Below the pieces are notes generated by a model. The model searched no databases. It saw only the letters and a program-made list of their open reading frames with translations, and was not told the origin of the DNA. Positions 125 to 4,971 of a stretch of DNA of 4,971 nucleotides are shown piece by piece; the first letter of the stretch is position 1; every line of letters starts with the position of its first letter. The translations under genes were made by a program, and so were the position numbers. Source of the DNA: a virus (lineage: Duplodnaviria > Heunggongvirae > Uroviricota > Caudoviricetes); the IMG/VR virus record IMGVR_UViG_2600254997_000016, positions 1 to 4,971 of that record, one strand, 5' to 3'.

Positions 125-1174
125 ATGCTTAATACTGTAAAAATATCCAGTTGTGAGTTAGTCAACGCCGACTGCCTGGAATTTATCCGGTCGTTACCCG
201 AAAATTCTGTTGACCTGATAGTCACGGACCCGCCGTACTTTAAAGTGAAGCCCGAGGGCTGGGATAACCAGTGGAAGGGCGACGATGATTACCTGAAGTG
301 GCAGGACCAGTGTCTGGCGCAGTTCTGGCGGGTGCTGAAACCTGCCGGAAGTCTTTACCTGTTCTGTGGCCATCGCCTGGCATCTGACATTGAAATCATG
401 ATGCGTGAACGCTTCAGTGTGCTGAACCATATTATCTGGGCGAAGCCGTCCGGACGCTGGAACGGATGCAACAAGGAAAGCCTGCGGGCGTATTTCCCCG
501 CCACAGAGCGCATTCTGTTCGCGGAACATTATCAGGGGCCGTATCGTCCGAAAGATGCCGGGTATGAGGCGAAGGGCAGGGCACTGAAACAGCATGTGAT
601 GGCCCCGCTGATTGCTTACTTTCGTGATGCGCGCGCTGCCCTGGGGATAACGGCAAAACAGATTGCAGATGCCACAGGAAAGAAAAACATGGTGCCGCAC
701 TGGTTCAGTGCCAGTCAGTGGCAGCTACCGAACGAAAGCGATTATCTGAAATTACAGTCGCTGTTTGCCCGGGTGGCAGAAGAGAAACATCAGCGCGGGG
801 AACTGGAAAAGCCACACCACCAGCTGGTCAGCACATACAGTGAGCTGAACCGGCAGTATATGGAACTGCTGAGTGAATATAAAAATTTGCGGCGGTATTT
901 CGGTGTGACGGTGCAGGTGCCGTACACCGATGTGTGGACGTATAAACCGGTGCAGTACTATCCAGGGAAACATCCGTGCGAAAAACCGGCAGAAATGCTG
1001 CAGCAGATAATCAGCGCAAGTAGTCGTCCTGGTGATCTGGTTGCGGATTTTTTCATGGGGTCGGGTTCAACGGTAAAAGCGGCGATGGCACTGGGGCGTC
1101 GTGCGATTGGTGTTGAGCTGGAGACCGGACGTTTTGAGCAGACAGTCAGGGAAGTTCAGGATTTAATCGTTTGA
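125..1174 (+). CDS. Orphan DNA methyltransferase, beta-class N6-adenine/N4-cytosine family (probably N6-adenine)
   Basis: 349-aa ORF. Motif IV DPPY at aa 35-38 (nt 227-238, in VDLIVTDPPYF) lies near the N-terminus and AdoMet-binding motif I FMGSGST at aa 310-316 (nt ~1052-1072) near the C-terminus, which is the permuted beta-class order (as in M.RsrI-type enzymes). The ~150 aa between them would be the target-recognition region. No endonuclease partner in the window. The only in-frame start is ATG 125, directly after a TGA at 119-121; there is no strong SD. Confidence 0.88.
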   Translation: MLNTVKISSCELVNADCLEFIRSLPENSVDLIVTDPPYFKVKPEGWDNQWKGDDDYLKWQDQCLAQFWRVLKPAGSLYLFCGHRLASDIEIMMRERFSVLNHIIWAKPSGRWNGCNKESLRAYFPATERILFAEHYQGPYRPKDAGYEAKGRALKQHVMAPLIAYFRDARAALGITAKQIADATGKKNMVPHWFSASQWQLPNESDYLKLQSLFARVAEEKHQRGELEKPHHQLVSTYSELNRQYMELLSEYKNLRRYFGVTVQVPYTDVWTYKPVQYYPGKHPCEKPAEMLQQIISASSRPGDLVADFFMGSGSTVKAAMALGRRAIGVELETGRFEQTVREVQDLIV

Positions 1175-1223: not shown

Positions 1224-1299
1224 GGCCCTTTAGCTCAGTGGTGAGAGCGAGCGACTCATAATCGCCAGGTCGCTGGTTCAAATCCAGCAAGGGCCACCA
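1224..1299 (+). tRNA. ileZ: tRNA-Ile (anticodon CAU, lysidine type, reads AUA)
   Basis: 76-nt cloverleaf read by hand: acceptor GGCCCTT (1224-1230) pairs with AAGGGCC (1289-1295); D-arm GCTC/GAGC; anticodon loop CTCATAA with CAT at 1257-1259; T-arm GCTGG-TTCAAAT-CCAGC; discriminator A and encoded CCA at 1297-1299. Very similar to E. coli ileX-type tRNA-Ile2. The symbol follows the ileZ-argN-argO cluster of Stx/lambdoid phages. tRNA-Met cannot be strictly excluded from sequence alone. Confidence 0.85.
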
Positions 1300-1308
1300 T
1301 ATCACATA

Positions 1309-1385
1309 CCGCCATTAGCTCATCGGGATAGAGCGCCAGCCTTCGAAGCTGGTTGCGCGGGGTTAGAGTCCTCGATGGCGGTCCA
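1309..1385 (+). tRNA. argN: tRNA-Arg (anticodon UCG), with atypical T-loop
   Basis: 77-nt cloverleaf: acceptor CCGCCAT (1309-1315) pairs perfectly with ATGGCGG (1375-1381); D-arm GCTC/GAGC with GG in the loop; anticodon stem CCAGC/GCTGG with loop CTTCGAA, anticodon TCG at 1343-1345; T-stem CGGGG/CCTCG (one G-U); T-loop TTAGAGT has A where the near-universal C56 is expected; CCA at 1383-1385. Symbol by positional analogy only. Confidence 0.7.
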
Positions 1386-1398
1386 TTATCTGTACCCT

Positions 1399-1475
1399 GC
1401 GTTGTTAGCTCAGCCGGACAGAGCAATTGCCTTCTAAGCAATCGGTCACTGGTTCGAATCCAGTACAACGCGCCA
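1399..1475 (+). tRNA. argO: tRNA-Arg (anticodon UCU, reads AGA/AGG)
   Basis: 77-nt cloverleaf: acceptor GCGTTGT (1399-1405) pairs with ACAACGC (1465-1471); D-arm GCTC/GAGC; anticodon stem ATTGC/GCAAT with loop CTTCTAA, anticodon TCT at 1433-1435; canonical T-arm ACTGG-TTCGAAT-CCAGT; discriminator G and CCA at 1473-1475. Symbol by positional analogy. Confidence 0.85.
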
Positions 1476-1514: not shown

Positions 1515-1741
1515 AAATGTCTCACAATTCAGACGGTTGACAGTTGTCTGTTTTGCGGGGAGTTTGTTAAAAGAAACTGGCATGGTGAATCCCCCTGTGC
1601 GGAGGGGCAATCAGCGAGTAGGTATATGGGATAATCGCGGATTCAGGTGCTGGTACTGAATTCACCGGGAGGCACCCGGCACCATGCAATGGCACATAGC
1701 GCCACTCTCCAGCCCCTCTCCGGAGGGGCTTTCTTATGGAC

Positions 1742-1963: not shown

Positions 1964-2743
1964 ATGGCATTTAAACACTATGATGTTGTCAGGGCGGCGT
2001 CGCCGTCAGACCTTGCGGAAAAGCTGACACACAAACTGAAAGAGGGCTGGCAGCCATATGGCGGACCGGTTGCCATTACGCCGTACACACTGATGCAGGC
2101 GGTGGCTATTGAAGGAGATCCACAGGTCGGCCCTTCATCTGAGCCGGACTGGTTCTACGTGGTTGTGCTTGCCGGACAGTCCAACGGCATGGCCTACGGT
2201 GAAGGGCTTCCGTTACCGGATTCTTACGATGCTCCGGATCCGCGCATTAAACAGCTGGCGCGCCGCAGCACGGTAACTCCGGGTGGAGAGAGTTGTACGT
2301 ATAACGACATCATCCCGGCTGACCATTGTCTGCATGATGTTCAGGATATGAGTACGATTAACCATCCCCGGGCTGACCTGAGCAAAGGGCAGTACGGCTG
2401 TGTCGGACAGGGCTTACATATTGCCAAAAAACTGCTTCCGTATATCCCTAATAATGCGGGGATCCTGCTGGTACCATGCTGTCGTGGTGGTTCGGCATTC
2501 ACCCAGGGCACGGAGGGGACATTCAGCGAGTCCACGGGGGCCAGTCAGGATTCGGCTCGCTGGGGAGTGGGTAAGCCGTTATATCAGGATCTGCTTTTTC
2601 CGCACGAAGGCAGCATAGCAGAAAAACCCGAAAAACGTTTTGCTGGCGATATGCTGGATGCAGGGGGAATTCGATATGACGAATGCCAGTTACGCCCAGC
2701 AGCCAGCAGCATTTCTTGCAATGGTACAGCAGTTCCGTGCTGA
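1964..2743 (+). CDS. nanS-p: nanS-p-like prophage 9-O-acetyl-sialate esterase, N-terminal fragment (DUF1737-like N-terminus plus start of SASA/SGNH esterase domain); frame interrupted
   Basis: 259-aa ORF with SD GGGAGG (1954-1959) 4 nt before ATG 1964. The N-terminus MAFKHYDVVRAASPSDLAEKL resembles the DUF1737 start of prophage NanS-p esterases. The catalytic-serine motif GQSN is at aa 71-74 (nt 2174-2185). The frame stops at TGA 2741-2743, overlapping the next ORF, so this is one gene broken by a frameshift (see findings). Confidence 0.75.
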   Translation: MAFKHYDVVRAASPSDLAEKLTHKLKEGWQPYGGPVAITPYTLMQAVAIEGDPQVGPSSEPDWFYVVVLAGQSNGMAYGEGLPLPDSYDAPDPRIKQLARRSTVTPGGESCTYNDIIPADHCLHDVQDMSTINHPRADLSKGQYGCVGQGLHIAKKLLPYIPNNAGILLVPCCRGGSAFTQGTEGTFSESTGASQDSARWGVGKPLYQDLLFPHEGSIAEKPEKRFAGDMLDAGGIRYDECQLRPAASSISCNGTAVPC

Positions 2744-3797
2744 CTTTGCCGGGCTGGCGGCGCAGTGTCACGGTGGAAGTCCGGCATCAGTCCCCTGGAT
2801 TTGCGGCGACACGACATACGCGTGGAAACAAGAACACGGTACGCAATATGAAGTGGTATATGGTGCATATAAAGGTAAAGAATCCCAGCAGATTTATTTT
2901 GTTCCCTTTATGACCGATGGTAGCGGAGTTAATACACCGACAAACAACCCGTCAGAAGATCCTGATATTGCCGGGTCTGGTTATTACGGTTCGGCATCCC
3001 GAACGAACAAAAACTGGGTATCATCAAATCGCCCGACGCATTTCAGCTCATGGGCGCGTCGTGGCATTATTCCCGATCGTATGGCAACTGCTATTCTGAA
3101 CGTAGCCGGTCGCACCTTAGCCTTCATTAGTGGTAAGGCACCGGAAATCAAACCCTCGCCCGGCGGCGACACGCCATCGGGGCCGTCTGAAGATGCATCC
3201 GTACGCACAATCTCCCTGTTGCCGACAGCCGGAGATGCTGCTGCGCAGGGCTGGAGCATTAAGAATGGCGGAATTCAGTTGTCAGATGGTGTATTTAAGA
3301 TCACCAAGCAGAGCAATAAAACCTGGTCCCTGATGCATCCGGTGGATGACGCAATTACCCTGCTGACACAGGGCGGCAGACTGACCTGTAAGTTCCGCCT
3401 CTCAGGCGCACTGACCAACAATCAGTTCGGGCTGGGGATTTATCTGTATACGGACGCTCCCGTTCCTGATGATGTGGCGATGACGGGTACTGGTAATCCG
3501 TTCCTGATGTCTTACTTCACTCAGACCACTGACGGCAGAGTGAATCTGATGCATCACAGGAAAGCCGGAAACACGAAGCTGGGGGAGTTCGGCGATTACG
3601 GTAACGACTGGCAGACGCTGGAGCTGGTGTTCACCGCCGGCAGTGCCACGGTTACTCCGAAACTGAATGGAGTGGCTGGCCCGGCATTCCAGGTTATAAA
3701 AGACAGTCTGACACTGGGACTGAATGCGCTGACGCTGACGGATGTTACAAAAAATGCAGCGTATGGCGTTGAGATAGAAAGTCTGGTGCTGGAGTAA
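2640..3797 (+). CDS. nanS-p: nanS-p-like esterase, C-terminal fragment (rest of SASA domain plus C-terminal domain); not an independent gene
   Basis: 385-aa ORF in the frame one position ahead of 1964-2743 (positions 0 vs 2 mod 3). It is open from just after TAG 2616-2618; the track start at 2640 is a TTG, not a credible initiation site. It contains WMQGEFD (nt ~2655-2675), matching the SASA-family QGE(S)D block expected downstream of GQSN. Stop TAA 3795-3797. Confidence 0.7.
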   Translation: MLAICWMQGEFDMTNASYAQQPAAFLAMVQQFRADFAGLAAQCHGGSPASVPWICGDTTYAWKQEHGTQYEVVYGAYKGKESQQIYFVPFMTDGSGVNTPTNNPSEDPDIAGSGYYGSASRTNKNWVSSNRPTHFSSWARRGIIPDRMATAILNVAGRTLAFISGKAPEIKPSPGGDTPSGPSEDASVRTISLLPTAGDAAAQGWSIKNGGIQLSDGVFKITKQSNKTWSLMHPVDDAITLLTQGGRLTCKFRLSGALTNNQFGLGIYLYTDAPVPDDVAMTGTGNPFLMSYFTQTTDGRVNLMHHRKAGNTKLGEFGDYGNDWQTLELVFTAGSATVTPKLNGVAGPAFQVIKDSLTLGLNALTLTDVTKNAAYGVEIESLVLE

Positions 3798-3813
3798 ATG
3801 CACCGGCAGCAAT

Positions 3814-3850
3814 ATAAAAAAAGCCAGCGCCCACTCTGAAGGACGCTGGC
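3814..3850 (-). terminator. Putative minus-strand-oriented terminator-like hairpin just 3' of nanS-p
   Basis: Stem GCCAGCG (3823-3829) / CGCTGGC (3844-3850) with a 14-nt loop, preceded on the + strand by A7 (3816-3822), which is a U-tract on the minus strand. Only AAAAC follows on the + strand. The long loop lowers confidence. Confidence 0.4.
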
Positions 3851-4026
3851 TAAAACGGGTAGATGTACTTCACATGATACTTATACTTGGCAGTACATTT
3901 TCTGACAGACAGTGACGGATGTTGTCAAGATATTGTGTCATTTATAACCTGAATCAGGGGTTGGCCGGAATGTTATCTGGCATTTTTAGCAGAGCCTGAA
4001 TGCCATAATCACGGCTCTCGGCGTTG

Positions 4027-4063
4027 GCCGTCAGTGGGTGACACTGGCGGCTTTTTTGTTTTT
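4027..4063 (+). terminator. Strong rho-independent terminator immediately upstream of the lysis cassette (tR'-like position)
   Basis: 10-bp stem GCCGTCAGTG (4027-4036) / CACTGGCGGC (4042-4051) with one G-U, loop GGTGA, followed by TTTTTTGTTTTT (4052-4063). It ends ~45 nt before the S start codon. Confidence 0.75.
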
Positions 4064-4107
4064 CTTTACTTTCATTTTCTGTCGGCGGTGACGGAGACAT
4101 ACATCAG

Positions 4108-4314
4108 ATGGAAAAAATCACAACAGGTGTGTCATACACCACGTCAGCGGTGGGGACGGGATACTGGTTACTGCAGCTGCTGGACAAAGTCTCTCCGTCC
4201 CAGTGGGTGGCAATAGGTGTGCTGGGGAGTCTGCTGTTTGGCCTGCTGACGTATCTGACAAACCTTTATTTCAAGATTAAAGAAGATAAGCGCAAGGCTG
4301 CGAGAGGTGAATAA
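4108..4314 (+). CDS. S: Holin S, phage-21-type pinholin (S21-68-like)
   Basis: 68-aa ORF with SD GGAG (4093-4096) 11 nt before ATG 4108. Two predicted transmembrane segments ([18 protein letters not shown] and [23 protein letters not shown]) and a charged C-terminus [13 protein letters not shown]. Closely resembles the phage 21 pinholin as I recall it. The stop TAA 4312-4314 overlaps the R start as TAATG. Confidence 0.9.
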
Positions 4315-4811
4315 TGCCTCCATCATTACGAAAAGCCGTTGCTGCTGCTATTGGTGGTGGGGCTGTTGCCATAGCGTCTGTGCTCATCACTGGTCCGAGT
4401 GGTGACGATGGCCTGGAAGGTGTCAGCTACATACCATACAAAGATATCGTTGGCGTATGGACTGTATGTCACGGACACACCGGAAAAGACATCATGCCCG
4501 GTAAAACGTATACCGAAGCAGAATGCAAAGCCCTCCTGAATAAAGACCTTGCCACGGTCGCCAGACAAATTAACCCGTACATCAACGTCGATATACCGGA
4601 AACAACGCGCGGCGCTCTTTACTCGTTCGTTTACAACGTGGGCGCTGGCAATTTCAGAACATCGACGCTTCTTCGCAAAATAAACCAGGGCGATATCAAA
4701 GGCGCATGTGATCAGCTACGGCGCTGGACATACGCTGGCGGTAAGCAATGGAAAGGGCTGATGACTCGCCGCGAGATTGAGCGTGAAGTCTGTTTGTGGG
4801 GGCAACAATGA
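4314..4811 (+). CDS. R: SAR endolysin R (T4-lysozyme-like muramidase with N-terminal signal-anchor-release domain), R21-like
   Basis: 165-aa ORF. N-terminal Gly/Ala-rich weakly hydrophobic segment [20 protein letters not shown] (aa ~8-27) is a typical SAR domain. Catalytic triad in E-8aa-D-5aa-T spacing: E35, D44, T50 ([17 protein letters not shown]). SD GAGG at 4303-4306. Pairs with the pinholin upstream. Confidence 0.9.
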
Positions 4812-4971
4812 GCAGAGTAACCGCGATTATCTACGTTCTGGTCATCTGCCTCATCGTCTGCCTTTCATGGGCTGTTAATCATTACCGTGATAACGCCATC
4901 GCCTACAAAGAGCAGCGCGATAAAGCCACATCCATCATCGCTGATATGCAGAAGCGGCAACGTGATGTAGC
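4808..4971 (+). CDS. Rz: Rz i-spanin (inner-membrane spanin subunit), 5' partial, runs off the window
   Basis: ATG 4808 overlaps the R stop (ATGA). Translation [54 protein letters not shown] is near-identical to the lambda Rz N-terminus as I recall it, with an N-terminal TM anchor. No stop within the window. The embedded Rz1 start is expected beyond the window end. Confidence 0.85.

Follow-up and report, generated by a model that had tools for sequence, protein, structure and literature searches.

The NanS-p esterases of lambdoid prophages are encoded by single genes. For Stx2a phages, a D-SASA-CTR architecture with a lectin-like fold of the C-terminal domain was described in a single protein of ~645 aa (PMC10462455). 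Intact relatives are annotated in RefSeq as single ORFs with an overall length of 616-620 aa. Among the best 120 of 1,600 relatives from a large protein collection, partial fragments aside, most are single proteins of ~570-650 aa with all three Pfam domains of the family. In the locus analyzed here these domains are present in the DNA, but they are not contained in one reading frame. Thus, the gene is a member of this family by descent, as a pseudogene.

The DNA under study, in the following termed the window, is the entire contig ALNX01000030.1 (4,971 bp) of assembly GCA_000754045.1, a draft genome of E. coli E851/71 that dates from 2012-14. ALNX00000000 is E. coli E851/71, which is named among the E. 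coli strains with H-NST (PMC3897749). The window represents the late region of a lambdoid prophage, and the order of its genes (methylase, three tRNAs, esterase, class II holin, lysozyme and Rz) is the same as in annotated relatives, with the esterase gene lying upstream of the holin and endolysin genes (Table 1). Methylase, the three tRNAs, holin and lysozyme are all intact on the contig. Positions 1-2317 are ~99% identical to a prophage of strain 3059, and positions 2326-4971 resemble the prophage of E2348/69 (99.2-99.9%); the lysis genes are 99.2% identical to E2348/69 with zero indels, and over 920 nt no indels were found in comparison to E2348/69. Relative to these two references, from which the true parental alleles may differ, a mosaic junction is located between 2317 and 2326, inside the esterase gene. 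This junction (2318-2325) was absent from every complete E. coli genome searched.

Several further features of the region were noted. The first tRNA of the cluster, called Met(CAT) by ARAGORN, is a tRNA-Ile in RefSeq relatives, which points to a phage cluster of the ileZ-argN-argO type. The middle tRNA, whose score is lower (54 bits), deviates from strain 3059 at positions 1325 and 1365; in E2348/69 it is absent from the annotation. The STnc100 match covers the full model with 139 bits versus a gathering score of 47, is closed by a terminator-like hairpin at 1711-1730 and sits between the tRNA cluster and the esterase gene, i.e. at the position of stxAB in Stx phages. Between the tRNAs and nanS-p (1476-1963) stx genes are absent, so that the window looks like the late region of a Stx phage without the toxin operon. 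E2348/69 has IraM, DUF3927 and two IS elements at the matching locus, none of which is present in the window. The prophage DNA methyltransferase gene beside the esterase (locus 1-789) is annotated as frameshifted in the complete genomes of SCU-125 and GN06667 and is intact in the window (349 aa).

Table 1. Features of the window and of its interrupted esterase gene (positions refer to the window).
Feature	Position	Strand	Basis or remark
DNA methyltransferase gene	125-1174		
Three tRNA genes	1224-1475	+	ARAGORN: Met(CAT), Arg(TCG), Arg(TCT)
STnc100-type sRNA	1551-1741	+	Rfam RF02076
Esterase gene (nanS-p type)	1964-3797	+	
N-terminal fragment ORF, 259 aa	1964-2743	+	residues 1-212 native (DUF1737 and first part of SASA/SGNH esterase domain)
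GQSN block	2174-2185	+	Ser codon 2180-2182 aligns with the NanS nucleophile Ser (chain residue 30 of 3PT5)
Lesion 1: T5 run versus T4 in intact homologues, +1 insertion	2595-2599	+	alignments
Lesion 2: TAG in the ancestral frame, T>A at 2617, TTG (Leu218) to nonsense	2616-2618	+	Leu conserved in NanS as ..AAL..
C-terminal part, shifted frame	2619-3797	+	listed ORF 2640-3797 (385 aa); source gene caller 2721-3797 (358 aa)
Two A5 runs, wild type (…QKNPKN…)	2622-2635	+	identical in 94/94 IMG/VR loci and 4 aligned genomes
Lesion 3: one A missing after 3794, GGAGATAAAT to GGAGTAAAT	3794-3797	+	alignments
AT versus TA in relatives, ancestral stop region	3812-3813	+	
G+C-rich hairpin between A-run and T-run, terminator-like, 3' of esterase gene	3822-3851	.	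consensus scan only
Class II holin, lysozyme, start of Rz	3' of esterase gene, in that order		

The esterase gene is distributed over two reading frames. GQSN is encoded within the upstream ORF, and WMQGEFD (TGG ATG CAG GGG GAA TTC GAT, 2655-2675) lies one base ahead of the GQSN frame, in a frame that contains the TAG of lesion 2 and is open afterwards until 3797. In the upstream fragment, residues 213-259 are out-of-frame junk ended by TGA 2741-2743. This fragment is matched by PF08410 (E 4e-16), and its match to PF03629 remains below the threshold because the domain is cut. The C-terminal part contains WMQGEFD, the catalytic His codon (3039-3041) and the lectin-like DUF6645 (about 3363-3695), and is 100% identical to the corresponding residues of E2348/69 WP_000874298.1. 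Both ORFs together match the single-chain NanS (PDB 3PT5, E 2.5e-120) as well as intact prophage esterases of 616-617 aa. Thus, the pair of ORFs is not due to chance. On the minus strand, two ORFs run across the site (2523-2771 and 2584-2868); these antisense ORFs were considered and found to be without support.

To locate the interruption, the segment 2520-2760 was aligned to three intact annotated genes, namely those of E2348/69 (1,851 nt), SCU-125 and GN06667 (both 1,854 nt). Only two differences from all three genes were found in this segment, an extra T in CTGC-TTTT(T)-CCGC and a T>A substitution that converts CAT TGC AG to CAT AGC AG. In alignments of the whole gene to the intact genes the extra T is the sole internal indel, and the changes at 2617 and 3794 are the other disabling differences. 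As judged from these alignments, the ancestral frame is lost at the T-run 2595-2599 via the extra T. In the +1 frame the window reads …CFFRTKAA-stop-QKNPKNVLLAICWMQGEFD…, where intact proteins have …LLFRTKAALQKNPKNVLLAICWMQGEFD…; the homology thus changes frame at the T-run, 20 nt ahead of the TAG. Chromosomal NanS agrees with this, as its segment PLYQDLVSRTRAALVKNPQNKFLGVCWMQGEFD can be aligned with the ancestral frame and has Leu at the position of the TAG in the window. At the 3' end, where relatives have GGAGATAAATGCACC and the window has GGAGTAAATGCACC, the missing A puts TAA 3795-3797 in frame, and the last six residues (INAPAA) are lost, whereas all complete IMG/VR homologues of normal length end ..LEIN... 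Due to the presence of this deletion, the AT/TA difference a few bases downstream is without consequence. The window allele can therefore be written as T5 + TAG + GAGTAAAT and the intact allele as T4 + TTG + GAGATAAAT.

Removal of one T and reversion of 2617 yields a protein with 100% identity to E2348/69 WP_000874298.1 over residues 141-610; the first 140 residues derive from another, strain 3059-like allele. The repaired protein contains PF08410 (DUF1737), PF03629 (SASA, E 1.5e-11) and PF20350 (DUF6645), and the SASA match is lost when the fragments are searched separately. It is colinear with NanS/YjhS (3PT5, E 2.5e-120, residues 60-379), and its C-terminal domain with NanS-p (6YP6, E 1.6e-27). 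The three blocks of the SASA/SGNH esterase core, i.e. GQSN, QGExD and the catalytic His, are all aligned in the repaired translation, the His of HFSS pairing with chain residue 312 of 3PT5. Ser19 and His301, which we take to be the catalytic pair of NanS, agree with the aligned positions after an offset of 11 residues for the tag.

All three lesions are private to contig ALNX01000030.1. A 105-nt probe spanning lesions 1 and 2 and a separate 3' probe were searched against 5,426 complete E. coli genomes. The 105-nt probe matches 605 complete genomes with a top identity of 98.1%, corresponding to exactly two differences; in none of the 5,426 genomes did the match reach 99%, and the T5 run occurs in 0 of them. 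For lesion 3, the 3' probe reaches at best 97.2% in complete E. coli genomes. In IMG/VR, the junction is intact (T4 + TTG) in 94 stretches, and both T5 (with TTG or TAG) and T4 + TAG were found in 0 stretches. Among the GTDB species representatives the lesions are absent, the one match (Escherichia sp. MOD1-EC7003) being intact, and an exact-protein search of a large collection with the 259-aa and 358-aa products found them on no other contig.

Disruption within the nanS-p paralogous family is not rare. Among the IMG/VR loci with an intact junction there are 68 complete ORFs, of which 63 are single and 616-620 aa long and five (L062, L077, L036, L069 and L099) are truncated, their lengths being 277, 546, 697, 415 and 458 aa. 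In L062 and L077 the DNA homology extends over the full length, so that these two carry independent point lesions. These other disrupted copies are truncated like the one in the window, but their lesions lie elsewhere; T5, TAG 2616-2618 and the deletion at 3794 occur in none of them. The 90% protein cluster of window positions 1964-2740 has 1,077 members, of which 15 are listed; the majority of these 15 are N-terminal fragments, marked as partial and interrupted by the end of a contig. Evidently, short-read assemblies break inside the esterase gene as a rule. The partial fragments among the members listed end at residues 161-231, most often at 183, and the 183-aa form is found on 997 contigs. 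That the lesion coincides with the usual assembly break point of the gene was considered and set aside as a weak argument, since the fragment ends scatter.

An earlier note on this DNA had read the locus as a broken nanS-p gene of a lambdoid prophage, with a single-base frameshift in one of the A5 runs at 2622-2626 and 2631-2635. The first part of this reading stands, as the gene is a SASA esterase gene that is normally one gene and is interrupted here; the place and the number of the lesions have to be corrected. The positions that it gave for GQSN, the WMQGEFD frame, the TAG and both A5 runs are each correct, and deletion of one A indeed opens a continuous ORF of 610 aa, as computed by us. 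That one extra A in either run is the only lesion is nevertheless very improbable. All intact homologues that were examined have A5 at both runs (E2348/69, SCU-125, GN06667, MOD1-EC7003 and all 94 IMG/VR loci with an intact junction), so that the alignments to intact alleles refute a lesion there, and the identity to intact proteins changes frame already at the T-run, slightly upstream of the interval in which the shift had been sought. The A-deleted product moreover keeps eight non-native residues, PHEGSIAE where the family has RTKAALQK, and the TAG and the 3' deletion would stay unexplained; in place of the one lesion claimed, three were found. Thus, an open frame that is regained by editing a nearby homopolymer does not prove the site of a lesion; here, it was located only by alignment with intact alleles.

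Readings in which the split is functional fare no better. If ribosomes shifted by +1, or the transcript slipped, in the A-runs past the TAG, the frame might be restored, and the arrangement of the sequence would allow for this: owing to the extra T, the TAG is not in the frame being read, and the frame-0 stop at 2743 is preceded by two A5 runs. However, efficient slippage requires runs longer than A5, the site has neither a known +1 shift motif nor a slow codon, homologues are single chains, and the arrangement occurs in no other genome searched, hence nothing is conserved; a frameshift site conserved in homologues, with a slippery motif and a stimulator, was not found. The two ORFs could also encode two subunits, but the catalytic Ser and His would then be on different fragments, and the IMG/VR homologues exclude that GQSN and QGExD are normally encoded by two separate genes. 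We regard recoding or a two-subunit design as highly unlikely. Hardly any more credit can be given to the idea that the extra T acts as a partial suppressor of the TAG, with rare +1 slippage or a future loss of one base in the A5 runs restoring the native frame; if it were true, a low level of full-length esterase with a substitution of 8-12 residues would result.

What has to be weighed are the two explanations that the earlier note had already rightly paired, a real inactivating mutation and a sequencing or assembly error. We somewhat favour genuine decay of one redundant prophage nanS-p paralogue in E851/71, a classical EPEC strain. Once a first mutation were in place, further ones would be neutral, and several lesions in one gene are what neutral decay would predict. 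Two of the three lesions are not changes of homopolymer length, the 1.17 kb (1,166 nt) between the lesions in the 3' part are a clean E2348/69 haplotype (99.9%), and the remaining genes on the contig are intact. Broken copies also exist elsewhere, in IMG/VR in five of 68 cases with at least two due to point lesions, and neighbouring late genes are likewise annotated as frameshifted in complete genomes. On the other hand, none of the three lesions was found outside one short contig of an old draft, and assemblers are known to struggle with this gene family, as illustrated by the 1,077-member cluster. Over 1.45 kb, the window shows only six differences from the E2348/69 allele, and three of these disable the gene, which exceeds the expectation for neutral decay (p about 0.02-0.1 as a rough estimate).

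The same observations lend considerable weight to an artefact, which we consider quite possible though not the leading explanation. The gene of E851/71 would then truly be intact (~617 aa), whereas the consensus of this short contig, which stems from a multi-copy prophage region, would be wrong at the extra T, at the T>A change and at the missing A. Lesion 1 is a change of homopolymer length, and the T>A change at 2617, like the AT/TA swap at 3812-3813, might be written as paired run-length miscalls of the type made by flow platforms. The confinement of the lesions to a single draft contig, the over-representation of disabling changes among the few differences from E2348/69, the likewise private mosaic junction at 2318-2325 and the frequent breakage of assemblies in this gene family point in the same direction. 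At normal coverage, however, it is atypical for consensus errors to take the form of a nonsense substitution or of a deletion that lies outside a run, no frame errors are found in the remaining contig, and a single clean haplotype extends between the lesions; for the latter reason, a blend of paralogues was rejected for the 3' part.

As it reads, the window contains a nanS-p-type 9-O-acetyl-sialate esterase gene (DUF1737, SASA esterase and lectin-like C-terminal domain) that is predicted to be dead. Translation from ATG 1964 would yield 212 native residues followed by 47 junk residues, a product that would keep the Ser nucleophile without the catalytic His, the QGE block or the carbohydrate-binding domain. 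For the rest of the gene, the native start would be missing. Within 2663-2678, a Shine-Dalgarno-like GGGGGA is located 7 nt upstream of ATG 2676 in the C-terminal frame, and translation from this ATG could conceivably give a 373-aa fragment that contains the His and the lectin-like domain. Because the split places Ser (2180-2182) and His (3039-3041) in different fragments, neither fragment is expected to be active, and no functional esterase should be made.

Whether it is a dead copy of the gene or an error in the draft sequence, the broken nanS-p copy is ordinary and does not represent new biology. It is best recorded as a nanS-p pseudogene that has a frameshift at 2595-2599, a nonsense codon at 2616-2618 and a truncated 3' end, or else corrected should the lesions prove to be errors. 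It should also be excluded from the functional nanS-p paralogues when the gene dosage of sialate esterases in EPEC/EHEC is tallied.

Overall, the locus is most similar to the NanS-p loci of lambdoid and Stx phages, e.g. of 933W, and to that of E2348/69 (WP_000874298.1, 'SASA family carbohydrate esterase'), with which it has the order DUF1737, SASA and DUF6645/lectin-like domain in common. Its place between tRNAs of the ileZ-argN-argO type and the S-R-Rz lysis genes also matches. It differs from these systems in that the gene is broken by the additional T, the TAG and the one-base deletion at the 3' end, that no stx genes are located upstream, and that the first 140 residues resemble those of strain 3059. 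With chromosomal NanS (YjhS, 3PT5) it shares the esterase core over 320 residues, including GQSN, WMQGEFD and the His of HFSS. Unlike the gene in the window, chromosomal NanS is intact and has neither the DUF1737 N-domain nor the lectin-like C-domain.
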